Origin: a phage
DNA length: 64,000 nucleotides
Strand: one strand, 5' to 3'
Sequence record: PV874203.1
The notes under the pieces were generated by a model that had not been told where the DNA came from, did not search any database, and was given only the letters and a program-made list of their open reading frames with translations. Positions within the stretch are counted from its first letter, which is position 1. Each line of letters starts with the position of its first letter. Both the position numbers and the translations under genes were made by a program. Below, piece after piece: positions 15,910 to 54,893 of this stretch.

Positions 15910-15977
15910 ATTTATTACCTAAGAAGTTTAATTTGGTTTATATAAAAGAAAAGGCCACCCATTTGGGTAGCCTTATA

Positions 15978-16301
15978 TTACGATGAGCTTAAAGCTCCTT
16001 TTCGCTTAGCAGCACCAGCTGCTTTTCCAGCTCGATTACCACTTTTGCCGCCGTTTGAACGGTTTGAGCTGACTGATTCAATACGTAAGTTGCTTGACGC
16101 ATTAGAGCCTCCAGACTTGACAGCTCGTTTGTGTCCAACATCTTTACCTCTGACAGCAGCTTTTCCATCGCGCTTTTCAACGATGCGACGTGCACGGTGG
16201 CGCTGAGCATCTCCGCTCTTGCTCCCAACGCCTGTCTCACCACGGGCAATTGCGGTACGTCTTTCTTGTGCATAATCTCTCTTTCCTACATGATCTGCCA
16301 T
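15978..16301 (-). CDS. Hypothetical basic Gly/Ser/Arg/Lys-rich protein (possible nucleic-acid-binding)
   Basis: ATG with AAGGAG 6 nt upstream and the TAATGTATA motif about 40 nt upstream. An alternative overlapping frame (15989..16273) exists. Confidence 0.4.
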   Translation of the reverse strand: MADHVGKRDYAQERRTAIARGETGVGSKSGDAQRHRARRIVEKRDGKAAVRGKDVGHKRAVKSGGSNASSNLRIESVSSNRSNGGKSGNRAGKAAGAAKRKGALSSS

Positions 16302-35611: not shown

Positions 35612-35992
35612 ACTTACTCCTGTTGTTTACACTCGTCAATAACCCACTGATAAGTGGATTGCCCAGAAAAGAAACACTGAATAAATCCAGATGTTCTCTG
35701 CGTTACCAGTGCTAGTGCACAAATCACTACCGCTGCTGCTAGCAGTTTTAAATCTAATTTAGACATATTTCCTCTCATTGAATTTAAAAAAGGACTCTCC
35801 GAAAAGAGCCAAGCTTTAAATCCAAAAAAAGATATTACCCAATATCTGTGGATAACCTGCTCTTAAAATATCTATCCGACGGATGTTTGAGGAATACTCC
35901 TCGCCCTAGCATCGGCCCCATACGGGAAATATATTAAGATTAGGTTAGTTGAGTCAGAATAACTCACATAGCCCTCCGGAGGGCTATAGGCG

Positions 35993-36457
35993 TTACTCTA
36001 TCCTAACTGAAGGGCAGTATTTCTCTTTCTTGCTGCGATACATCACAACAATCCAGTTTGAATCACGACGCTCTTTCTTACGTCGTTTCTTTTCAGCACG
36101 AGTTTCATATGTGCTAGTTCTGTGGTCACGGTATATTCCACGAAGTTCATAAAATGCCCAACCACCACCAAACACTACACCAGCCAAAGCAGCCAAAGAC
36201 AAGGCACCAAGAGCAGGGGCAGTGAACCATGTCCACCAATTGAATGACAAAAAATTCTCATGCCCAAGTAAAGAGCCACCAATCATGGACAGTGCAGCGT
36301 ATACAACCCCTAACAGCAGCGTCAGTGCAATGAAGTGCATCACTGTACGCCAGAAGTATTCACAGAAGTTGGTCATGTTGTCCCAATGATAATTGGGTAG
36401 GCTTGACATGGCTTTGTTGAACTTGTGCAACCAGCCGTTCTTGTTAACCTTGATCAT
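35993..36457 (-). CDS. Hypothetical membrane protein (two predicted TM helices, basic C-terminus)
   Basis: Hydrophobic segments HFIALTLLLGVVYAALSMIGGSLLG and FTAPALGALSLAALAGVVFGGGWAF. Confidence 0.5.
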   Translation of the reverse strand: MIKVNKNGWLHKFNKAMSSLPNYHWDNMTNFCEYFWRTVMHFIALTLLLGVVYAALSMIGGSLLGHENFLSFNWWTWFTAPALGALSLAALAGVVFGGGWAFYELRGIYRDHRTSTYETRAEKKRRKKERRDSNWIVVMYRSKKEKYCPSVRIE

Positions 36458-36690
36458 TACTCACCTTTCTTGGCACGATCTTTGGCAGTTTTGCCAGTGC
36501 GGATACGATGGGAAACGTTAACCAGAGTGCCACCATCAACTACGGTAACACTCTTGTTTTTAGCCAGATCGAACACAGTTTTCTCCGTGCCACCCAAGCG
36601 AATTTGCTTAGGCTCACTGAAGGTTTGGGTTGATTTGGATTGGAACTGGAACGGTTGACGAATTGCATCGATTGCGCTTACTTTAGACAT
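36457..36690 (-). CDS. Hypothetical protein
   Basis: 77-aa ORF. Confidence 0.45.
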   Translation of the reverse strand: MSKVSAIDAIRQPFQFQSKSTQTFSEPKQIRLGGTEKTVFDLAKNKSVTVVDGGTLVNVSHRIRTGKTAKDRAKKGE

Positions 36691-36921
36691 AGGGGAAATT
36701 CCTTAAAAAGTTATGGCTGCGTAGAGGGAATTCCCTACGCAAATTGGGCCGCCCACAGAGAGGCGTCATAGTACTAAAAGGAGGAGAGAAGAGGGCTTAT
36801 TTAGCTACCTTTTTCTGTCCGTTTACGAACCAGATAATTGAACCGTCAGGCTGTCGTTGCCCGAAGCCTTTCTGGTTAATCATATCGTCATAAGAATATG
36901 CTTTGATTCTCATTTGTTTTC

Positions 36922-37164
36922 CTATGGAGTTAAGATAATTTCAGCCTTACTAAACTTCTCACCAACTTCAAGAGTATCAGCAACAGGACGGGGCACACCT
37001 GTACCCAAACAAACAGCCCTTCGATACCCTCCAGTCACAGGCATCATCAAATAGATGACCTGATTATCATCTTCTTTTAAAGTAAAGATATCAGCGATCG
37101 ATAGATCTTTAACAAAGAGTTTCTTTTCTTCTTCATGATGAACTTTGATATGTATTGTGCTCAT
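36922..37164 (-). CDS. Small protein, member of a paralogous family
   Basis: Shares the D(L/V)xxG(D/S)(V/I)F ... NL(x)TG pattern with at least 7 other small ORFs. Confidence 0.5.
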   Translation of the reverse strand: MSTIHIKVHHEEEKKLFVKDLSIADIFTLKEDDNQVIYLMMPVTGGYRRAVCLGTGVPRPVADTLEVGEKFSKAEIILTP

Positions 37165-37166
37165 AC

Positions 37167-37412
37167 CTACTCCTGAACAACTGACATACGAATCACTTCA
37201 ACAGGTGCATCACTTTTCATAACACCCAGTACGCCAGTAAGAAGATTAACGGTCGTAATCCAACCTTCTTCGACAGAGATTTTGTTGGATACATTATTAA
37301 CACGGATGTAATACTGAGGGGATGCTGTTCCTCTCTGAACTACGAAAGGGTTTCCGGGAATAATTGTAGCCAGTGAAACAGTGTTATCTTTAATCTTTGG
37401 GATAATCTTCAT
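37167..37412 (-). CDS. Small protein, probable member of the same paralogous family
   Basis: Similar size and LATIIPGNPF...LLTGV pattern. Confidence 0.45.
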   Translation of the reverse strand: MKIIPKIKDNTVSLATIIPGNPFVVQRGTASPQYYIRVNNVSNKISVEEGWITTVNLLTGVLGVMKSDAPVEVIRMSVVQE

Positions 37413-37420
37413 ATTGATTC

Positions 37421-37744
37421 CTATTTAAGTTTTAGGCTAATATTAAGGTGCATACATGCCCTGTTCTGTACAGCAGCATAACTTCTACCGAGCATGTCAG
37501 CCATTCTCTGAATAGACATGAACCCAGCATTACGGATAAGGAACTGGTCTTCTTCTTTAGACCACTTGACTCGGATTACAGCTCTAGAAATACCGAACTT
37601 AGTGCAAGCTGTATTAACTGCATTCTCCGTTACATTCATAATCTGAGCAACTTCTTGAACCGAGTACTCTTTGATTAGTCTCCGAAGATTTTCAATCTGC
37701 ATCGGAGTCCATATAGTTCTTCGAGCTTTCATTTTACCACCCAT
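37421..37744 (-). CDS. Putative DNA-binding protein with two tandem HTH-like repeats
   Basis: Two approx 50-aa repeats each with W...E...L...S..E.A..M........R. Confidence 0.45.
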   Translation of the reverse strand: MGGKMKARRTIWTPMQIENLRRLIKEYSVQEVAQIMNVTENAVNTACTKFGISRAVIRVKWSKEEDQFLIRNAGFMSIQRMADMLGRSYAAVQNRACMHLNISLKLK

Positions 37745-37955
37745 GTCGACTTTTAACTAACACACCATCAATTATCAGATAATGTAAATGTCTTATCATA
37801 TCTGAAGACAGATCTCCATGAGCGCTATTCCACTGAAGGAAGTTCATATCCTTCCAATCTGTGTAGTGCTTTTTGGCTTCTTCCTCTATCTGACTAAGAG
37901 TTACCCTTCTGAAAGGATATGGACTATACTTAATAAGTGTTTCACATTTTGTCAT
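37734..37955 (-). CDS. Hypothetical protein
   Basis: 73-aa ORF. Confidence 0.4.
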   Translation of the reverse strand: MTKCETLIKYSPYPFRRVTLSQIEEEAKKHYTDWKDMNFLQWNSAHGDLSSDMIRHLHYLIIDGVLVKSRHGW

Positions 37956-38245
37956 ATATCCTCCAATTAAATGTTTATGTAAGACTTGCTTAGATAAAGA
38001 TTCAATAAAATAGGGGGAGGGGACGAATCCTCCCTTATCCTATTAATTAATATTGCATGTAAGATCTAACAATCGGTTGCCTTTGTAGGAATAAGCGTTA
38101 TGCCAATCCAGCACTAAACTCCCGCCCCCTTAGTGGGCTGGGTTTATAAAGGGTAACGCCCTTATGGGCTAGTTACATGAATGTTAGTTTGATAGGGGAT
38201 CTGAAGTCCTATCTCAAAGGACTCTCGTAAGAATCCTTCACGATA

Positions 38246-38503
38246 TTACTTAAAGATGAAATGTATAACTGCATCATATGCTTTAGACAGAAGCCAACCT
38301 ATCGGATAACAGACTCCTGCCAGTATTGAGATGGGCCATAACATAATTAAGATCACAACCATCATCTCATCAGGTTCAGAGCTGGTAGACCCTGTTGTAA
38401 TGACCCCTTTTAGTAGACCTTTCTTGTATAGCAGTTTCAGCACTAAAACAGAAAGGAATACTCCAATAAAGTAAACTGAGATAAAAATATCAAGTAAACC
38501 CAT
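38246..38503 (-). CDS. Hypothetical small membrane protein (holin-like topology, unproven)
   Basis: 85 aa with 2-3 hydrophobic helices. Confidence 0.4.
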   Translation of the reverse strand: MGLLDIFISVYFIGVFLSVLVLKLLYKKGLLKGVITTGSTSSEPDEMMVVILIMLWPISILAGVCYPIGWLLSKAYDAVIHFIFK

Positions 38504-38654
38504 TTAATCACCTATTACTTATTCAACTTTCGTCTGCTATCTCGCCAAGCCAACCAAGTGTAGGTTTTCAGCTCTTCAAAGTCTTCTGGAGAGAATAGAT
38601 ATTCTTTGAAGGTATTTCCAAACCACTTTAAAAATTCTTCAGTCATAAAACCTC

Positions 38655-38828
38655 TTAACAAGACTGGTCACATGGCTGATCACCACATGTTTTACAAATC
38701 ACTGGTGAATAACTACAGGAAGGATATACTGACACACCGTCAAACGTCTCACACCCACAGTCAGGGCATGTACCATTGGATTCCATGTCATAATCATCAT
38801 CCACTTCACCACCACCATAACAGCTCAT
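38655..38828 (-). CDS. Hypothetical small Cys-rich protein (57 aa)
   Basis: Hand-translated ORF MSCYGGGEVDDDY...CPDCGCETF...CKTCGDQPCDQSC with AAGGAG upstream. Confidence 0.35.
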   Translation of the reverse strand: MSCYGGGEVDDDYDMESNGTCPDCGCETFDGVSVYPSCSYSPVICKTCGDQPCDQSC

Positions 38829-38837
38829 ATGAACTCC

Positions 38838-39059
38838 TTAGTAAACTAAACCTATAGCCTTTGCATCAGGCTGAGGGACTACTTTTGCATTAGGGCGATA
38901 ACCATCCACTGAACCATTCCAAAGGTTGACACAGGTGATATACCCATCGTTCAAGTAGTCTGTTTTAATCCAGAAGTGTTTATCGTGACCAAAGATACTT
39001 CCTTTTGGCAGTGTGGACAATTCAACAGTTTTAAGGGATTGTTTAGAATCTAATTTCAT
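38838..39059 (-). CDS. Small protein, member of paralogous family
   Basis: LSTLPKGSIFGHDKHFWIKTDYLNDGYITCVNLWNGSV fits the family pattern. Confidence 0.5.
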   Translation of the reverse strand: MKLDSKQSLKTVELSTLPKGSIFGHDKHFWIKTDYLNDGYITCVNLWNGSVDGYRPNAKVVPQPDAKAIGLVY

Positions 39060-39068
39060 ATAAGTTCC

Positions 39069-39266
39069 TTAATACACCAAGCCATGTAAGAGAAACACTC
39101 TCTTAGTTAACTCTGCTTTAGCTCTGTAATAAGCCTTAGAACCTAACAGGCGGCGTTTAACAAAGAACTTAATGTCATTGCTAACATCTTGTATTAAACG
39201 CTCCTGTACAGCTTCTGAGGAGCTATTAATTGAATCAATTAACACCTTTGTAGATGTATAATTCAT
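39069..39266 (-). CDS. Hypothetical protein
   Basis: 65-aa ORF. Confidence 0.35.
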   Translation of the reverse strand: MNYTSTKVLIDSINSSSEAVQERLIQDVSNDIKFFVKRRLLGSKAYYRAKAELTKRVFLLHGLVY

Positions 39267-39267
39267 A

Positions 39268-39567
39268 TCACCACTCCTTACCGGTTGTTGTTACAGAGCC
39301 ACCACACCACAACGCTGTATCAATCACAACATTATCTGGCGTAGACTTCTCTTCGTTGATAGAAGGGTTAGCATTGGAGCAGGTTGCTCCGTTCCAGCGC
39401 ATATCGATTTCACCAGAAGGAACCTTCTCACCTTTATGCCAGCGAGAAACACAAACACCTTCCACTGCTACTGCACACCATCCATCAGGACGGCTCTGTA
39501 CGCAGCCTGTAAGGGCCACACAGACAAGGAAGATACAGATTAAGGATATTACACCACCCCAACTCAT
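39268..39567 (-). CDS. Predicted lipoprotein (possible superinfection-exclusion / receptor-masking protein)
   Basis: Signal peptide with lipobox LTGC, then Cys-rich mature domain. Function inferred by analogy to phage lipoproteins such as T5 Llp. Confidence 0.5.
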   Translation of the reverse strand: MSWGGVISLICIFLVCVALTGCVQSRPDGWCAVAVEGVCVSRWHKGEKVPSGEIDMRWNGATCSNANPSINEEKSTPDNVVIDTALWCGGSVTTTGKEW

Positions 39568-39586
39568 AACTATCTCCTACGTTGAT

Positions 39587-39662
39587 TGGTGCACCCTACA
39601 GGACTCGAACCTGTAACCAACGACTTAGAAGGTCGCTGCTCTGTCCATTGAGCTAAGGGTGC
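39587..39662 (-). tRNA. tRNA-Arg (anticodon UCU), 76 nt with encoded CCA
   Basis: Hand-folded cloverleaf: acceptor GCACCCT/AGGGTGC, D-arm GCTC/GAGC, anticodon stem GCGAC/GTCGT with loop CTTCTAA, T-arm ACAGG/CCTGT with loop TTCGAGT, 3' ACCA. Confidence 0.8.
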
Positions 39663-39671
39663 TATATTTAT

Positions 39672-39980
39672 TTATAAGGAGAAAGACTTCTTACAATCCT
39701 TCTCTTCAAAAGTGTAGTAGCCTGTTGTATCAGGGAAGTAGGCATACTTTGTTTCTTTGCCATCAATAGCCATGACACGATTACCAGAAGTTGTTTCTAC
39801 AAACAGAAGCCCATCTCTTACCATACCATGAGATTCTTTGATACCAGTTAAGCTATGCTCTTTAAGAGTGCATTGCTGAACACTCTGATACTTAACTCCA
39901 ATCTCTGCACTATTAACAGAGATGATACCAATGGTTGTCATTAGTAGTAAGGTTGAGATGATAAAATGCTTTTGTTTCAC
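39672..39980 (-). CDS. Hypothetical secreted protein
   Basis: N-terminal signal-peptide-like segment (MKQKHFIISTLLLMTTIGIISVNSA). Confidence 0.45.
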   Translation of the reverse strand: MKQKHFIISTLLLMTTIGIISVNSAEIGVKYQSVQQCTLKEHSLTGIKESHGMVRDGLLFVETTSGNRVMAIDGKETKYAYFPDTTGYYTFEEKDCKKSFSL

Positions 39981-39998
39981 ATTAACCTCTGGATTTAT

Positions 39999-40208
39999 TT
40001 AACTGAAGATACGCAAGGCCACATCGTGATAGATATGACCGGGGACTTTGTGCTGTTCTATTTTCAAACAGCGTTTACAGACACGAGATACACGAGATTC
40101 TTTTCTCTCGACCGGAGTGTCTTTAGCGTGAGTAATATGTAAGTTTTCAGTGATCACCCACTCATGTTTACATCCAGAATCTTCGGGCTTTTTCTTACGA
40201 AAGAACAT
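39999..40208 (-). CDS. Hypothetical Cys-containing protein
   Basis: 69-aa ORF with CKHEW ... CKRC pattern. Confidence 0.4.
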   Translation of the reverse strand: MFFRKKKPEDSGCKHEWVITENLHITHAKDTPVERKESRVSRVCKRCLKIEQHKVPGHIYHDVALRIFS

Positions 40209-40217
40209 AACACCCCC

Positions 40218-40379
40218 TTAGATTACATCACGATGACTAACATCACCACACACCTTACACTGAATAACGTAACGTGTGCCCTTGTCATTATTCCCATCTG
40301 AATCTGTATAGACCAGAGGGCGAGTATTAATAATCTTCCAATCATGACAATGAAAGACACGCTTTAGCCACTTGAACAT
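40218..40379 (-). CDS. Hypothetical zinc-ribbon protein
   Basis: Track ORF trimmed to internal Met (MFKWLKRVFHCHDW...CKVCGD) to avoid overlap. Confidence 0.35.
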   Translation of the reverse strand: MFKWLKRVFHCHDWKIINTRPLVYTDSDGNNDKGTRYVIQCKVCGDVSHRDVI

Positions 40380-40386
40380 ATTAACC

Positions 40387-40638
40387 TCAAGCACAAGCAG
40401 GGAGAGTGATGATTTTATGCTTACCATCAAACTCTCCAAATAAACCTAAGAATGTAGGACTGTAAGTGCCAGTACAAACAAACTCATCAAACAGTGCGTT
40501 ATAGCTAGGCTTAATCTTCCAAGCCCATACATAACCCATCTTGTCAATTGCAATGTAACGAGTGTTCAGAGGAACAGTCATCATCACACCATCAACTTCA
40601 ATCACTTTAGTTATTGGTGCAGCTTGGAAGTTTTTCAT
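40387..40638 (-). CDS. Hypothetical protein
   Basis: 83-aa ORF. Confidence 0.4.
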   Translation of the reverse strand: MKNFQAAPITKVIEVDGVMMTVPLNTRYIAIDKMGYVWAWKIKPSYNALFDEFVCTGTYSPTFLGLFGEFDGKHKIITLPACA

Positions 40639-40865
40639 TACATTTCCTCTAACTTAAGAGTTGCTTTATATTCTTTAACCGGAGCGTCTTCAGGGAAAGA
40701 AAGTCTTTGAGAGGGTTGGGGTAATCGTACAGAAAACCCGCCACCAATCTTCATGTAGAAAGATTCTTGACTGGCAAGTTCTGTGTTGAATGTGAAAATA
40801 GAACCAATGCTCAAGTCTCGGAAAGTCTTTTGCTTTGGTTTAGTCGAGTCTAAAACGATATTCAT
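40638..40865 (-). CDS. Small protein, probable member of paralogous family
   Basis: FRDLSIGSIFTF pattern. Confidence 0.45.
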   Translation of the reverse strand: MNIVLDSTKPKQKTFRDLSIGSIFTFNTELASQESFYMKIGGGFSVRLPQPSQRLSFPEDAPVKEYKATLKLEEM

Positions 40866-41038
40866 ACTTTACCTTTGATAAAAATGTCATTACCACAGAC
40901 ACAGCATGAACGAACAACAGTAGCGCCACGCTGAACGATACGAACCTCTTCTTTAACCAGATTAACACGAGCACCACAGCAAGGAGAGTTAACATAAGAG
41001 TAACCAGCTTGCGTATTCTTGATTGTTTGCTTAGACAT
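40862..41038 (-). CDS. Hypothetical zinc-ribbon protein (58 aa)
   Basis: Hand-translated ORF with CC...CCVCG; start overlaps the upstream stop (ATGTCTAA). Confidence 0.35.
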   Translation of the reverse strand: MSKQTIKNTQAGYSYVNSPCCGARVNLVKEEVRIVQRGATVVRSCCVCGNDIFIKGKV

Positions 41039-41489
41039 TTGATTCGAGATCTCTTAGTTGTTCAGCCAATTGTTCGCACTCATTGATGCAGAACTCTTCT
41101 GTTCTTGGAACCCCATTAGGGTTGAACCGTGTCTTATCACACGCATGGGCACAATCAAACCCGATTGTATTTAAACCACCCATCTCTTCAAGAGTGTCTT
41201 GCCATGTTACACCACCGTGAACTCCAACATACCAAACAACCGCTTCCTCTCCGTTATATCCGGTGAAGTTTTTATGCTTTAAGCTGTCTGGTAGCTCTAC
41301 ATATCCACAAAGATGGGAGTCGTTCATGTGAATAATCACAGCACGAAGCCCTGATTTAGTTACCCAACCTTTAACCATGCGTCTCATATAAGCACCTCTT
41401 GTTAGTTTAAGTAAGAGTTGTCCCTTAATTAAAACAACAAAGGCCACCCGATTGGGCAGCCTTTTATCTATTAACTGTTGTATGTCCAA
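41031..41489 (-). CDS. Hypothetical protein
   Basis: 152-aa ORF; true start may be an internal Met. Confidence 0.45.
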   Translation of the reverse strand: MDIQQLIDKRLPNRVAFVVLIKGQLLLKLTRGAYMRRMVKGWVTKSGLRAVIIHMNDSHLCGYVELPDSLKHKNFTGYNGEEAVVWYVGVHGGVTWQDTLEEMGGLNTIGFDCAHACDKTRFNPNGVPRTEEFCINECEQLAEQLRDLESNV

Positions 41490-41969
41490 TTACCTTGCTT
41501 GTTACGGATAGCTGACATTGCATGAAGCCAGAAGCCTTCCAGTTTCAGAGCACCGTTAGCTACTGCATCCATACGTTCAGGGCGGTTCATAAGTTTGGTT
41601 GACACTTTCATACCTATATCTCTTTGTTAGTGGAGGCATTATTGCCAGTTGATATAAGGGATAGCCCTAGTCAGGAGACTAATTCTGACCGCGTACTCAT
41701 TGCCGACCTTCTCTGCCTAAGAGTTCAGGTTCTAGAGCTATCTCTTATTCCAACTGGTGAAGACTCCCTACCCCTAGGAAGTCTCCTGAATCCCAAACCG
41801 ATACGTACCCCTACATATCAGAAAGTCTTTCGAAAATTAACAGGTTTTAGTCTAACACCGGATGTTCGAGCAAGCTCTCCCTAGCGGTGTGGCATATGCC
41901 TGAGTTAATAAGTTAATGAGGAACACCCTCACATAGCCCTCTGATAGACACAAGGGCTATAAGTCGGTG

Positions 41970-42188
41970 TTACTTTTGAGTCAAACACAGATCAGGACGG
42001 GGCATAACAGTGGTTGATAGACCAAAGACTTCAACATAACCAGTGCCCAGATTGGCAGCCTTACGTAAACCGTCAGGGGTTTTATCTTCTAGCATCAGCC
42101 AGAAACGTTTATCGTAAGAGAAAACATCACCACCCTTAACGTCTTCTGCATTTGCATATTTAGGATAATCAACTACTTTAATTTCCAT
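41970..42188 (-). CDS. Small protein, member of paralogous family
   Basis: AEDVKGGDVFSYDKRFW...NLGTGYV. Confidence 0.5.
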   Translation of the reverse strand: MEIKVVDYPKYANAEDVKGGDVFSYDKRFWLMLEDKTPDGLRKAANLGTGYVEVFGLSTTVMPRPDLCLTQK

Positions 42189-44052: not shown

Positions 44053-44080
44053 ATAAAAAAGCCCCAGCCGTAGCCGGGGC
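44053..44080 (-). terminator. Rho-independent terminator
   Basis: GC-rich hairpin (GCCCCAGCCGTAGCCGGGGC) followed by a 6-T run on the minus strand. Confidence 0.5.
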
Positions 44081-44140
44081 AAACCTGAAAGCAACATATG
44101 ACCGTTGCTATAAATACACTCGCAAATGCACTTACAGCAA

Positions 44141-44163
44141 CGCAAAAAGCCGCTCAAAGGCGG
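44141..44163 (-). terminator. Rho-independent terminator (tandem with previous)
   Basis: Hairpin GCCGC-CTTTGA-GCGGC followed by a 5-T run on the minus strand. Confidence 0.5.
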
Positions 44164-44245
44164 CTATGCGGAAGCTTCAAATGGGGAGAGGGCACGACGC
44201 GACAGAAAGAGCGTCATAGTACTAAAAGAGGGGGATATATTCCTA

Positions 44246-46425: not shown

Positions 46426-47242
46426 CTTTCAATTGTAAGGGCACTATGCCCCGCTCTCTATGAGCTTGTTTAAGTCACTATTAACTTAACTATAACCACT
46501 CGTTGTTAAGTAGTTATAGGTAAGCGGGGCGGTCTTATCAGGAGTTAACCTTGCCGCCCCCTTATCCGTGATGTTTCATCTGGTACGCTTTAATTTTCCG
46601 CTATAAATAAAGCCGGATTGCGTAGCGATGATCAATCATCACAATAAGGCTATGCGTCCAACTCAATTTAATTACATTGCTGTAACCGTTGGCAATATCG
46701 TCTACTTTGCTTTCGCTCCCGCCTATCCTTTGTGCCAACTCCTAACCGCTAACCATCGCCCACTACGGGAGGTTATTGCGGAAAGAGATCATTGACCGCC
46801 TAATATTCCGGCGTTTTATATCTTTCGGCGGGTTTACTACATAACCCGACTATGTACTTCCGTCATAAGACGAATCTCAAGCCGTTCACATCGTAAACGT
46901 TCGCATTAAACCTTATTGTTAAATAGCAATTTGCCACTTTTTAACCACTCCCCGCCGCCCTCAATTGGGCGTTAATTCGTCGGACTTGTCTGCCCTGATT
47001 AGTTTCTTTCACTGTAGCACCGTGTTAGCGATGGCCGCCGCTACCCTTAACCGTGGGCGATTAGCTTAAACCTTTGCGTGTACTCAATGAATCCGCTTAT
47101 CAGTGGCGACTTTTCCAGTTAAGGGATTGTAAAACTGTTTACCCTGATGTTTTAGGGAGTTTTACGCCGTTTTATCTGGTATGCTGTCCGATGGTTATTA
47201 TCTTCCAGCATATTTAACCGATATATGGGAATGTTTAAATTG

Positions 47243-47868
47243 TTAAAGAGCGGTAAATCTGTCAGCGTGCTTTCTCACGCTACGCAACTGTTAGCCGTTG
47301 TTACGCTTTTCACTTAAGCGGTGATTTGCTTCAGTGATGCTCATTATGGACCATGATGTTTTTGCTGTCAACCGCTTTTTTAATCTTTTTCGTCGTTCCC
47401 GCTATTGGGAGGATATATCAACCCGCTTTATTGGGTTGAAGATTAAGCGATGAGGCTTAACCCATGATTCATATTGTTAAAGAGCGTTTAGCCTTTTATA
47501 GTGTCTGCTAATCACTGCATCATTAAAGGCTTACTTATTCATTAACGGGGCGCCTAATCCCGAACTACCCGCTGCACTATGTGCCACCTTTCCCGCGATA
47601 CGTTGATTTAGGAACTAGTTAACGTTGTTTTGTTAACTTGTGGTTAGTATGAACTACCTTAACCACGTTTGCAACCCTTTTTTATCATCTTCTTTTATTC
47701 TTTTCCCTTATCTCGCTTGAATCTATGCGAAAGGGCAAGATGATAAGTTTTTAAAGAGCGGGATGCTTTAAGTCATCGCTGACTATGCTCACTATATATC
47801 AGGCTATTTTCGGTGTCAATACTCTTTTTAAGAATATTTTCACTTTCTAGCCTGATTTTTAAAGAGCG
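47243..47868 (+). repeat. Four dispersed copies of TTAAAGAGCG(G) in an ORF-poor 1.7-kb region
   Basis: Copies at 47243, 47477, 47751 and 47859, in two subtypes (ATTGTTAAAGAGCG x2, TTTTTAAAGAGCGGG x2). Confidence 0.5.
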
Positions 47869-52529: not shown

Positions 52530-52736
52530 ATGTCATTAGATAAACAAATTTATGAAGCTCTAACTGGTAACAATCTTAGTGTAGAGGAAAAGAAAGCACT
52601 ATTGAATATGTTGAAAGAGCGTGACCAATGGAGGAAGTATAATAGGATTTTGTCTTTCAAGGCGTATGACTTCCAAAAGAAATTTTATGCAGCAGGATTG
52701 AAGCATCGCTTTAGGTTCTTGTGTGCGGCTAACCGT
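52530..52736 (+). CDS. Terminase large subunit (T7 gp19-like), exon 1, ending inside the Walker A motif
   Basis: GGAGG RBS, ATG; translation ends ...YDFQKKFYAAGLKHRFRFLCAANR then an in-frame TAA. Confidence 0.65.
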
Positions 52737-53558
52737 TAACTGTTATTCACCAAGATAACCAACACGAATCTGTCGCAGTATACAAAAGAGATTATCACCT
52801 AAGGCTTAGCTATGGTGGAGCGGTTTAAAAAGTGTGCTAATTGCTGGAAGGCTGTTACGAAAGTTATGCTAATCAGCAGCGAAGCTTAATGTGGGAAACC
52901 TATTAAGAACGTTCAACGACCAGAGATTATTCTCGTAGGGTAAAGTTACCCGAAACGCACACCCCAGAGTGGGATGATATGGTCTATTCTTTTCGGAAAC
53001 GTAAAGCAGGAGAAATTAAAAATATGTTTTTATATCACATCCGTCGTCCGGGTATGTCTTTAGAAGAGGGCTACATCGGAATCACGACAAACACTACAAA
53101 ACGTTTTGCTCAGCATCACAGAGACACTCGAAATAACAACCGACATAATAGGAACTGGCATCTCTATAACGCTCTTCGTAAATATGATGATATAGAGTTC
53201 GTTATCATAGAAGAAGGGGAAGATGAAGTAATTCGACAGAGAGAGTTTGAATTACGCTCGAAACCTAATATGGGTTGGAATCAAGCAGTAGGAGGTTCTC
53301 ATAATGGTGGCAACACTTGGAAAGGCAAACAACGACCTGAACACTCAGAGCTGATGAAGAAGATAGGTTTCCAGAAAGGTAATACCACTGGATCACATCA
53401 TCCAATCATGGCTGAAGGTCAAATATTTGAGAATAAACGTTTAGCGTCAGAAGCTCTTGGAATAAACCCTAAGACAATCTATAATAGATGCAAGAGAGGT
53501 GTTGATGGTTATAAATTTCTCCGGGATGACACTGTTACGGGTGCATCTGAATAAAGAG
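52737..53558 (+). mobile_element. Putative group I intron in the terminase large subunit gene, carrying a GIY-YIG homing endonuclease ORF
   Basis: About 822-nt insert splitting the P-loop: exon 1 ...AANR (last nt U) and exon 2 VGKSYSEA... give AANRVGKS (AxxxxGKS); insert ends in G. An alternative junction (52731/53550) is also rule-compatible. P1-P9 structure not verified. Confidence 0.55.
52979..53554 (+). CDS. GIY-YIG homing endonuclease (insert-encoded)
   Basis: N-terminal YHIRRPGMSLEEGYIGITTNTTKRFAQH matches the GIY-YIG core; basic C-terminal DNA-binding region. Confidence 0.75.
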   Translation: MVYSFRKRKAGEIKNMFLYHIRRPGMSLEEGYIGITTNTTKRFAQHHRDTRNNNRHNRNWHLYNALRKYDDIEFVIIEEGEDEVIRQREFELRSKPNMGWNQAVGGSHNGGNTWKGKQRPEHSELMKKIGFQKGNTTGSHHPIMAEGQIFENKRLASEALGINPKTIYNRCKRGVDGYKFLRDDTVTGASE

Positions 53559-54893
53559 GTTGGTAAATCTTACAGCGAGGCATACGAGTTTGCTTGTCAT
53601 GTCACAGGTCGCTACCCAACTTGGTGGACAGGATATAAATTTAAAAGACCTATCTTAGCATGGGCAGTTGGTATTACAGGGGATTCCACAAGGAAAGTAT
53701 TGCAAAAGGAATTGTTTGGTACACCTATCGGAAAGGATACAAATTTATTAGGGACAGGTGTCATTCCTCGTGATGCTATCGTCATTGATACGATAGAACG
53801 AGATGGTAACAAACTTCAAATCGTACAAATCAAACATCAAAATGAGAGAGGAGAATTTGACGGTTTAAGTACATTAGAATTCCGTTCAACCCAACAGGGT
53901 GAACACACATTGATGGGTGCAACAGTTGACTACATTTGGTTAGACGAAGAAGATCCATATGAGTCTATGGCTATATTCGCACAGTGCGTCACACGTACAC
54001 TCACAACTAAAGGTCTAGTTACAATTACAGCTACACCAGAGAACGGTTTAACTGAACTGGTAGATAAATTTATGAAAGGTGAAGGGGATGAGAACACAGG
54101 TTCTCTATATTTCCAGAATGCTTCTTGGTGGGATGCTCATGCAGACCTAGGTGGACACATCACTGACCAAGATATAAAAGATATGACTGAGGGTATTCCA
54201 GCGTGGCAATTAGAGATGCGTTCAAAAGGTATGCCATTGTTAGGAAGTGGTTTGATATATGATGTATCGGATGACACAATTAAATGTGAACCATTCGAAA
54301 TTCCTGATACGTGGAAACGTGTCTGTGCAATTGATATTGGTATTGATCACCCAACTGCTGCTGTTTGGACAGCTTACGATGCAAACACGGATACTATCTA
54401 TGTTTACGACTCATATAAAGAAGGTGGCTTTACTCCAGTGTATCATGCTCCAGCTATTAATGGTCGTGGTCAGTGGATTCCTGTCATCCTACCGCATGAT
54501 GCGGACAATACTGAGAAAGGTAGTGGTTCATCTGTTGCTCAATTCTATAAGAATGCAGGAGTTAACGTACAGAGTGAGACCTTCTACAACAAAATTGGAA
54601 TGGATGGTAAAAAGAACTTCTTTGTAGAACCGGGAATCACAGATATCCGAGAAAGAATGATGAGTGGACGCTTTAAAGTCTTTAACACAGCCGCTAACGC
54701 TAAGCTATTCGAAGAGAAAGCTAGATATCACCGTAAGGTTGGTAAGATTATTAAAGAACATGATGACTTAATGGATGCAATGCGTTATTCAGCGTGCTCT
54801 GTTACACATCGTGGTCGCTCTAAGCATGATGTTAGCTACGGAAGCGCTTCTTTGTATGAGGCAAACGTAAGCAGATGGAATCAGAGCTACTAA
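53559..54893 (+). CDS. Terminase large subunit (T7 gp19-like), exon 2: rest of ATPase domain and nuclease domain
   Basis: Begins VGKSYSEAYEF (completing Walker A), Walker B VDYIWLDEED. Track ORF starts at a GTG at 53499 inside the insert. Confidence 0.7.
   Translation, partial: VGKSYSEAYEFACHVTGRYPTWWTGYKFKRPILAWAVGITGDSTRKVLQKELFGTPIGKDTNLLGTGVIPRDAIVIDTIERDGNKLQIVQIKHQNERGEFDGLSTLEFRSTQQGEHTLMGATVDYIWLDEEDPYESMAIFAQCVTRTLTTKGLVTITATPENGLTELVDKFMKGEGDENTGSLYFQNASWWDAHADLGGHITDQDIKDMTEGIPAWQLEMRSKGMPLLGSGLIYDVSDDTIKCEPFEIPDTWKRVCAIDIGIDHPTAAVWTAYDANTDTIYVYDSYKEGGFTPVYHAPAINGRGQWIPVILPHDADNTEKGSGSSVAQFYKNAGVNVQSETFYNKIGMDGKKNFFVEPGITDIRERMMSGRFKVFNTAANAKLFEEKARYHRKVGKIIKEHDDLMDAMRYSACSVTHRGRSKHDVSYGSASLYEANVSRWNQSY

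Follow-up and report, generated by a model that had tools for sequence, protein, structure and literature searches.

A duplicated structured RNA module in the early region of a phiEco32-like phage and a possible processing role for its first hairpin

Introduction

We analyzed a 64,000-nt stretch of phage DNA (sequence record PV874203.1; hereafter, the window), in which nearly the same palindromic hairpin, termed H1, occurs just 3' of two minus-strand genes, at 35967-35988 (site 1) and 41932-41961 (site 2). H1 was found to be the first helix of a conserved multi-helix RNA module of ~125 nt, which is formed by the sense strand and is present in two paralogous copies per genome. A processing site or stability element is the most plausible candidate role of the hairpins. 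In particular, by analogy with the early mRNA of T7, H1 and an adjoining leader helix, termed P1, may form an RNase III-type processing and insulator signal, a reading to which we assign a probability of roughly 40%. All coordinates are those of the window, and the module copies with their flanking RNAs are given on the minus strand unless stated otherwise.

The window belongs to a phiEco32-like podophage (Kuravirus); phiEco32 itself is classed in Kuravirus, Gordonclarkvirinae. The 8 kb around the sites showed 85-95% identity to ~100 Escherichia and Shigella phages, including NJ01, SU10 and phiEco32, with identities of 85-98% among the Kuravirus relatives, and minus-strand genes extend from ~4 kb to 50 kb of the window. 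The early region of SU10 and phiEco32 is transcribed by the host sigma-70 RNA polymerase (PMC4281155), and homology with these two phages would place both of our sites in such a host-polymerase-transcribed early region. Minus-strand consensus early promoters were present upstream of both sites (47819-47791 and 47371-47343), and the phiEco32 equivalents of the two sites lie in the gaps of gene pairs 91/90 and 113/112.

Results

Sequence and position of the H1 hairpins

On the sense strand, H1 consists of a U·G pair and the stem AUAGCCCU/AGGGCUAU at both sites. The stem is closed by a CCGG loop at site 1 (minimum free energy (MFE) -12.5 kcal/mol, z -3.5) and by the 12-nt loop UGUGUCUAUCAG at site 2 (MFE -13.8 kcal/mol, z -4.1), where the hairpin was also recovered in the consensus fold. 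With their flanks, the two sites read UAA-CGCC-(U AUAGCCCU CCGG AGGGCUAU G)-UGAG and UAA-CACCGACU-(U AUAGCCCU UGUGUCUAUCAG AGGGCUAU G)-UGAG. The corresponding plus-strand sequences are CTCACATAGCCCT-CCGG-AGGGCTATAGG, with the stem ATAGCCCT/AGGGCTAT at 35968-35975 and 35980-35987, and CTCACATAGCCCT-CTGATAGACACA-AGGGCTATAAG, with the stem at 41933-41940 and 41953-41960. The near-identical palindromic element that an earlier note on this DNA had described was present at both sites; the interval proposed for site 2 (41921-41950) lay ~10 nt too far to the left. The upstream stop codons are TAA at 35993-35995, which ends the open reading frame (ORF) 35993..36457, and TAA at 41970-41972, which ends ORF 41970..42188, both on the minus strand. 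The hairpins do follow these stops, but at measured distances of 5 and 9 nt instead of the 10-30 nt suggested previously. The two upstream genes, which had been called unrelated, encode proteins of different PHROG families. The proteins adjoining the sites gave no functional clue, with no Pfam matches and with PHROG families that were all of unknown function or 'membrane protein'.

It had also been claimed that the stems are conserved while the loops differ. This was true within the genome under study but not in SU7- and ECBP2-type relatives, where the site 1 loop is of the same 12-nt type as the site 2 loop (TGTGAGTATCAG versus TGTGTCTATCAG). Because site 1 of these relatives has the loop type of site 2, the H1 loops of the two sites are homologous, and the CCGG loop at site 1 of the present phage is, as judged from these sequences, a derived shortening. 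The lower H1 stem (UAUAGCC/GGCUAU) was invariant in sequence, beyond its pairing.

Approximately seven exact 14-mer repeats are expected by chance in 64 kb according to a rough estimate, and the shared 14-mer alone is not significant. An exact 14-mer scan of viral contigs returned mostly chance matches, and the phiEco32-like genomes were the only true carriers, usually with two occurrences each. More than 100 genomes of related phages retain the element, and this conservation, together with the covariance-model scores given below, excluded chance as its origin.

The earlier note had listed a terminator first among the possible roles, and a stable, G+C-rich hairpin directly after the stop codon at both sites is what a plain intrinsic (Rho-independent) terminator would look like. 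However, the RNA 3' of H1 continues as the tails GUGAGUUAUUCUGAC and GUGAGGGUGUUCCUC, neither of which contains a U-run, and neither hairpin was listed by the terminator scan. Each hairpin is instead followed by 170-360 nt of conserved structured RNA, and a canonical conserved terminator lies ~170 nt beyond the site 1 H1. Because no U-tract follows, H1 is not an intrinsic terminator, and it is extremely improbable that the two hairpins are plain terminators or chance palindromes. A dimeric DNA-binding operator on the half-sites TATAGCC/GGCTATA was also considered and was rejected, given half-site spacings of 8, 10, 12 and 16 bp among the relatives.

Conserved architecture of the RNA module

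Local alignment of the two intergenic gaps revealed a second shared block, GCUAGGGnGAG..CUCnAACAUCCG, ~45-55 nt downstream. The module alignment comprised 31 distinct sequences, which were taken from both sites of phiEco32, NJ01, KBNP1711, ECBP2 and SU7, from metagenomic contigs and from Salmonella Grimontviridae phages. The covariance model R1 scored 133.2 bits at site 1 (35871..36002; E 1.6e-27) and 122 bits at site 2 (41850..41975; E 4.7e-25), where the module was also seen in the consensus fold. The runner-up scored at most 23 bits and was the palindrome read on the other strand; the genome-wide search that the earlier note had proposed for the stem, when carried out across the window with a model of the whole module, gave exactly two copies. 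Pattern scans likewise revealed two copies per genome in phiEco32, KBNP1711, ECBP2 and NJ01. In the first 50 kb searched of the Salmonella Grimontviridae phage SE131, we found one copy and no second one. H1 accompanied the module in both paralogues and in the Grimontviridae copy.

From 5' to 3', the module is composed of a leader containing ..AGUAAC.. and the first strand of P1, followed by H1, H2 (UGAGN-loop-N'CUCA), an A/U-rich linker, P3, P4, an internal loop, P5 and a tail. At site 1, the distal part spans 35876..35926, with P3 at 35917-35926, P4 formed by 35910-35915 and 35876-35881, and P5 at 35889-35902; the internal loop is composed of CUAGGGC (35903-35909) and AAACAUC (35882-35888), as placed by the 31-sequence alignment. 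At site 2, the same part spans 41855..41900, with P3 at 41891-41900, P4 formed by 41885-41890 and 41855-41860, and P5, which carries a CUUG loop, at 41868-41877; here, the alignment and the consensus fold place the internal loop strands CUAGGGA at 41878-41884 and GAACAUC at 41861-41867. The helices vary in sequence while their pairing is retained: P3 occurs as CCC-GUAU-GGG, GCC..GGC and GGC-AUAU-GCC, P4 as CCGAUG:CGUCGG, UCGGUG:CGCCGA and ACACCG:CGGUGU, and P5 as GAGGA:UCCUC, GAGC:GCUC and GAGA-CUUG-UCUC. The internal loop letters CUAGGG and AACAUC, between P4 and P5, were invariant in all 31 sequences. The two loop positions that flank P5 (35903 with 35888 at site 1 and 41878 with 41867 at site 2) covary as A..G or C..A in 29 of the 31 sequences, which suggests that they form a conserved non-Watson-Crick pair.

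The 22 pairs of H1, P3, P4 and P5 were paired in 99.5% of cells, versus 32-44% when the 3' partners were slid by one to three columns. Nine of these pairs changed on both sides, including two in P3, three in P4 and two in P5. All H1 cells were paired, and its two top pairs were compensated, one passing from C-G through U·G to U-A and the next swapping A-U for U-A; the H1 loops of the relatives included the tetraloops UUCG, UACG and UCCG. Two pairs contained U·G in 13 and 19 cells, respectively. On the plus strand, these cells would read A·C and be mismatched, which identifies the folded molecule as the sense transcript. In the consensus folds, 11 of 56 pairs were compensated at site 1 (19 sequences) and 13 of 79 pairs at site 2. 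The compensated pairs, the UNCG tetraloops and the wobbles that fit only the gene-sense strand bear out the earlier suggestion of a structured RNA motif rather than chance. That suggestion concerned the hairpin only, and P1, the alternative hairpin H2, the ~125-nt module and the sequence-level conservation of the lower H1 stem go beyond it.

Rfam release 15 gave no match at either site at the gathering score, and with E up to 10 there were just chance-level matches of 12-18 bits, none of which lay on H1. A sigma-70 promoter within the module was rejected as a candidate: a single weak 9/12 match (35957-35928) is not kept in SU7-type or Grimontviridae phages and has no counterpart at site 2. The module sequences also showed no evident AATGTA motif of the gp36 type.

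The module could also mark a recombination boundary, that is, a patch of DNA homology for swapping the adjoining cassettes, like the promoter-early stem-loops (PeSLs) of T4-type phages, with the RNA fold being secondary. Consistent with this idea, the genes directly upstream of both sites differ among relatives, with the breakpoint falling within a few bases of the ..AGTAAC leader, and the closest relatives cover only 69-85% of the ~6 kb between the sites, in 6-13 pieces. On the other hand, the compensatory changes, G·U intermediates and UNCG loops indicate selection on the RNA fold itself, only two copies are present, and no conserved sigma-70 promoter is attached to them. Recombination here may be a by-product of conservation and not a function. 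We consider this explanation, which does not exclude the others, very unlikely.

Leader helix P1 and alternative hairpin H2

The sequences on the two sides of H1 form a further helix, P1. At site 1, its 5' strand (AGAGUAAC, 35992..35999) contains the TAA of ORF 35993..36457 and pairs with GUUAUUCU at 35956-35963. At site 2, the 5' strand (AACACC, 41966..41971) overlaps the TAA of ORF 41970..42188 and pairs with GGUGUU at 41922-41927. The location of the stop codon inside this strand is not universal, since the actual stop codon lies 9 nt further upstream in phiEco32 and KBNP1711. P1 was recovered by single-sequence and consensus folding at both sites, and P1 together with H1 was the MFE fold of a 56-nt segment at site 1 (-22.8 kcal/mol, z -4.2) and of a 59-nt segment at site 2 (-23.9 kcal/mol, z -3.9). 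The stacked duplex of P1 and H1 contains 19 bp at site 1 and 21 bp at site 2, which corresponds to the size of an RNase III signal of about two turns (~20 bp). Between the two helices lies a small internal loop at both sites, with a conserved GUGA on its 3' side.

The 3' strand of P1 is shared with the hairpin H2, which at site 1 is UGAGU-UAUUCUG-ACUCA (35950..35966, overlapping the P1 3' strand at 35956-35963) and at site 2, as read directly from the sequence, is UGAGG-GUGUU-CCUCA (41917..41931). Because their bases overlap, P1 and H2 are mutually exclusive, and H2 is thus an alternative to P1. The P1 cells at site 1 were paired in 95.4% of cases, with wobble-type changes only. At site 2, P1 showed a C-G to U-A compensation in ECBP2-type phages (AACAUC:GAUGUU) and U·G intermediates in other phages, and H2 showed a clean compensatory change from U-A to C-G in SU7- and ECBP2-type phages. 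Judging from these substitutions, both conformers look real.

RNA downstream of site 1 and its complementarity to nrdD

The whole 215-nt gap at site 1 was conserved, even at ~70% identity in Grimontviridae. The linker and 5' strand of a long helix, P2 (UAACCU..UCUUAAUAUAUUU, 35927..35947), pair with 35853-35873 in single-sequence and consensus folds, and P2, P3 and P4/P5 meet in a three-way junction that P2 closes. In the consensus fold of site 1, P2 comprised UAACCU:AGGUUA and four further pairs, two of which were compensated; a comparison of Kuravirus with Grimontviridae also showed compensated P2 pairs. On visual inspection, the second part of P2 reaches UCUUAAUAUAUUU:AGAUAUUUUAAGA, which is UCUUUU:AAAAGA in SE131. 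P2 is followed by the invariant GGUUAUCCACA, an A/U-rich stretch and an intrinsic terminator that ends the site 1 RNA (GGCUCUUUUCGGAGAGUCC and then U6; 35783..35810). This terminator was identified by the terminator scan and was conserved in 19 of 19 sequences with its top pair compensated, and the annotation of phage SU7 lists the equivalent hairpin as a terminator. About 25 nt separate the site 1 terminator from the ribosome-binding site of the following gene, which leaves no room for a promoter.

The P2 3' strand and the adjoining segment (35827..35873) were found to be complementary to the leader of the host mRNA for anaerobic ribonucleotide reductase (nrdD) and to contain a perfect DnaA box (TTATCCACA) at 35847-35855. 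When 35868-35827 was compared by BLAST with a 28-Gb collection of high redundancy, 399 E. coli genomes each gave a single matching place on the chromosome, with 36 of 42 positions identical (E = 5e-3). The matched host DNA lies directly upstream of the nrdD ATG in antisense orientation; because the match runs opposite to nrdD, the phage sense RNA is complementary to the nrdD mRNA (approximately -50 to -9), and this complementarity stops one base before the nrdD GGAG ribosome-binding site. For Kuravirus RNAs, the phage-nrdD duplex was predicted at -52.6 kcal/mol (z -10 versus shuffles) with 27+6 contiguous pairs, using a 50-nt window; full-length RNAs were uninformative owing to giant loops. 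SE131 formed 19 contiguous pairs, and pSal-SNUABM-01 paired more weakly with the E. coli and Citrobacter leaders. A perfect TATAAT lies ~135 nt before the nrdD ATG, with two NrdR boxes just upstream of it, and these elements place the target in the putative nrdD 5' untranslated region. The same NrdR boxes are contained in an oligonucleotide described as the 'nrdDG promoter region' (PMC12176259).

The stretch GGTTATCCACA was invariant in 19 of 19 site 1 sequences, including those of Salmonella phages. On the host side, 80 Enterobacteriaceae loci were returned, a set that did not include Salmonella nrdD leaders; most of their nrdD leaders (~70 species) contained the motif TGTGGATAACCTGTT, which is composed of the DnaA box and its flank. 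The motif is located ~10-45 nt upstream of the ATG. We know of no described role for this DnaA-box element in enterobacterial nrdD leaders. Two readings of the complementary stretch are suggested by these sequences: it may be part of an antisense RNA against nrdD, or it may be a DnaA site that phage and host share, acting on DNA or possibly on RNA.

Under the first reading, the site 1 RNA is a possible antisense regulator of nrdD. In a broader proposal, phiEco32-like and Grimontviridae phages would reuse one RNA scaffold to carry different effector RNAs, with H1 as its helix for 5' processing and stability. The ancestral site 1 copy would be a structured antisense RNA of ~180-220 nt directed against the nrdD leader up to the ribosome-binding site, reprogramming the supply of deoxynucleoside triphosphates (dNTPs) in the anaerobic gut. 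We regard this proposal as possible but doubtful.

Under the second reading, the module could be a platform for a protein or ligand that sets termination at site 1, in the manner of a riboswitch or a protein-dependent attenuator, with H1 as a mere anchor. DnaA would be the candidate, bound to TTATCCACA either in RNA or in DNA, where the site would serve as a roadblock or as an element of an origin. The three-way junction of P2, P3 and P4/P5 is aptamer-like, it contains the invariant internal loop, and it is followed by a conserved terminator and then a gene. The invariance of GGTTATCCACA fits such a platform, and the retention of the box with its flanks upstream of nrdD in ~70 species suggests a site for a host regulatory protein. 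Additionally, possible binding of DnaA to a leader RNA that controls attenuation has been reported (PMC10989985). Nevertheless, no conserved antiterminator pairing with the terminator was found, as the Kuravirus pairing AAGAGC/GCUCUU is lost in Grimontviridae, and one perfect DnaA box is only modestly unexpected (two were observed in the window versus 0.66 expected). The site 2 module has no DnaA box and no adjacent terminator, so attenuation by DnaA is not a shared function of H1. Overall, we found the attenuator explanation quite unlikely.

RNA downstream of site 2

The untranslated gap at site 2 is 360 nt long and forms the folded leader of a 46-aa ORF (41471..41611). Beyond the module, the rest of the gap (41612..41849) contains three hairpins, X, Y and Z, followed by the ribosome-binding site of the 46-aa ORF, and its consensus fold included compensated pairs. 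X (41798-41821) and Y (41759-41786) are conserved and share a UA-GGGG-UA top. UAGGG is also present in hairpin Z and in the internal loop of the module, and site 1 has a GGGU loop (35830-35847); the UAGGG, GGGG and GGGU elements may represent a repeated recognition motif.

The apical 67 nt of hairpin Z (41668-41734) was 80% identical to non-coding sequences of the P22-like phages BTP1, ST104, L and ST64T, with an identical core of 22 nt (TCGGCAATGAGTACGCGGTCAG). In BTP1, the counterpart has the same orientation and lies within the interval from the nutL boxB to the beginning of the N-like gene, and it also caps a long helix. In the lambda N leader, the corresponding hairpin is a site for RNase III. 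In NJ01- and ECBP2-type phages, the place of Z is taken by shorter hairpins. A search of E. coli genomes with the site 2 gap returned no match.

Terminator-like hairpins flanked by A-rich and U-rich sequence were observed at 15941-15978 and 41430-41467, and the two showed 79% mutual identity (AAAGGCCACCC..GGG.AGCCTT). The latter lies directly after the 46-aa ORF.

Proposed processing mechanism

Our preferred reading is that P1 and H1 form a processing signal. H1 would stack on P1, which joins the stop-codon leader to the sequence just 3' of H1, and the resulting irregular duplex of ~19-21 bp with its small conserved internal loop would act as an endonucleolytic processing and insulator signal, as RNase III uses between the T7 early genes. 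If the RNA were cut on the 3' side of this loop, the upstream mRNA would end in H1, which is very stable and would protect it as a 3' cap. The freed downstream 5' end could then refold into H2, which would release and stabilize the structured RNA that follows: at site 1, an RNA of ~180 nt that ends in the terminator and carries the anti-nrdD stretch, and at site 2, the folded leader of the 46-aa gene. Since the proposed cut and refolding would use both conformers, the mechanism would account for the maintenance of both P1 and H2.

Several observations weigh against this reading. At site 1, P1 is supported by no changes other than wobbles, and in SU7-type phages it contains an A·C mismatch. The compensatory changes in the module are few, and although they cover every helix, they mostly track two or three lineage splits (among Kuravirus, Suseptimavirus and Grimontviridae, and between site 1 and site 2) instead of many independent events. 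The anti-nrdD stretch is partly sequestered in P2, and its most conserved core is exactly the DnaA box, which may act at the DNA level. RNase III does not need a conserved sequence, yet the lower H1 stem (UAUAGCC/GGCUAU) and the P4/P5 loop are invariant; this hints at a specific protein or tertiary partner, which the processing model does not explain. Finally, the literature searched contained no transcript ends, cleavage data or RNase III assays for these phages, and no Kuravirus transcriptomes were found.

Terminators, promoters and other features of the early region

The position of the modules in a long operon raised a further alternative, in which the module is a cis-acting antiterminator RNA like HK022 put or lambda nut. 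The nascent module would act on the polymerase, with or without a phage protein, so that it reads through terminators and expresses the promoterless early genes downstream. In-line terminators on the same strand do follow the modules, at 35810-35793 for site 1 and at 41464-41439 and 38034-38015 for site 2, and the gene ~25 nt after the site 1 terminator has a good ribosome-binding site and no room for a promoter. In addition, there are two copies per genome, as with putL and putR; H1 and H2 form adjacent stem-loops one base apart, and put is likewise described as two stem-loops, in ~70 nt (PMC9378689). A piece of a lambdoid pL-nutL-N leader also occurs in the site 2 gap. On the other hand, the module as a whole, with ~125 nt and five helices, is unlike put in architecture. 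No boxA-like sequence lies 5' of H1, and the H1 loop is variable (4-12 nt), unlike boxB; a boxA/boxB nut site was rejected as a candidate on these grounds. No N-like arginine-rich protein was seen beside the sites. Two strong tandem intrinsic terminators of the early operon (44061-44165) lie 3' of the main early promoters and 5' of both modules, and because they are upstream of both, the modules cannot serve them. We therefore consider antitermination unlikely.

Other features of the region were also observed. A gap of ~1.3 kb without long ORFs (46438-47773) carries two near-consensus minus-strand sigma-70 promoters (TTGACA-17-TATAGT and TTGACA-17-CATAAT) and a direct repeat of 36 nt (47234-47269 and 47468-47503). 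A tRNA-Arg gene (anticodon UCU; 39587-39662) lies within the early operon between the two copies of the module. It was the only tRNA given by ARAGORN, and a tRNA-like reading of the element was rejected. An N4-like phage using hairpin promoters for a virion RNA polymerase was likewise rejected, as the best matches were phiEco32 relatives (Kuravirus), which use the host RNA polymerase. On the plus strand, a group I intron (52734-53006; Rfam, 74.6 bits) is followed by an ORF for a GIY-YIG endonuclease (52979-53554), which lies directly 5' of, and overlaps, the large terminase ORF (53499-54893, also plus strand). This arrangement is probably an intron with a homing endonuclease in or beside the terminase gene.

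Discussion

Phages of the phiEco32 type are a model for the takeover of host transcription, through the sigma factor gp36 and gp79, and are present in phage therapy collections. The literature that we found contains no description of regulation at the RNA level in these phages. Judged by Rfam and the searched literature, the module is new, as are its presence in two copies and the anti-nrdD stretch attached to it. Elements of this kind, intercistronic RNA structures for processing or regulation within the early operon of a phage, are already known. A covarying module of ~125 nt that is absent from Rfam and duplicated in an early operon provides an object for studying how long polycistronic phage transcripts that the host polymerase makes are cut, insulated or read through. 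If the hairpin proves to be only an RNase III site, it would be an ordinary kind of element in a new setting. If the anti-nrdD stretch does act as antisense, it would be a clear case of a non-coding RNA of a virulent phage controlling a host gene for nucleotide supply, and it would also draw attention to the strikingly conserved DnaA-box element in enterobacterial nrdD leaders. The reusable scaffold, if real, would represent a phage trans-acting RNA directed against a core host metabolic gene and a new structured RNA family.

Comparison with known systems

We compared the module with four kinds of known elements. Like the T4-type PeSL, it is a repeated stem-loop between small early genes whose content varies among relatives; it differs in having no conserved early promoter, only two copies and an RNA fold that is clearly under selection. 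The site 1 RNA resembles base-pairing small RNAs, including those of phages and prophages, in ending with a terminator hairpin and U-tail after an A/U-rich stretch and in carrying a long conserved complement to a host mRNA leader beside the ribosome-binding site. In contrast to these RNAs, its complement of 27+6 bp extends far beyond the usual seed and lies half hidden within P2, the RNA showed no conserved promoter of its own, and the site 2 copy is without an E. coli target match.

The likeness to HK022 put and to the nut sites of lambda and P22 lies in the two copies per genome in early transcripts, upstream of terminators, and in the adjacent stem-loops, with put being compared by position and copy number; the lambdoid N-leader fragment in the site 2 gap is a further likeness to nut. 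The H1 stem AGCCCU/AGGGCU presumably matches the stem of the lambda nutL boxB, which we take as a lead only. There are clear differences from nut: in place of a CGCUCUUA-like boxA, the 5' flank of H1 is AGUAACRYC(GACU) in 31 of 31 sequences; the H1 loops are CCGG, UUCG, CUCC, UACG, UCCG or 12 nt long, with no conserved purine-rich boxB pentaloop; and the CCCU/AGGG part of the H1 stem is variable in relatives. Compared with put, the module is about twice as large and has another fold.

The RNase III sites of T7 (R0.3, R0.5, R1, R1.1 and R1.3) lie directly after stop codons in a host-polymerase early operon. They are irregular hairpins of ~50-60 nt with two stacked helices around a small internal loop, they occur in several related copies, and the hairpin left on the upstream mRNA stabilizes it. 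The present elements share with them the host-polymerase early operon, the position after the stop codon, the two stacked helices with an internal loop and the related copies, here as known from sequence and predicted folds. They differ from the T7 sites in three respects: the sequence of the lower H1 stem does not vary, the lower helix has a competitor in the alternative hairpin H2, and the hairpin is fused to a further conserved domain of ~75 nt (P3-P5), which is absent from the T7 sites.

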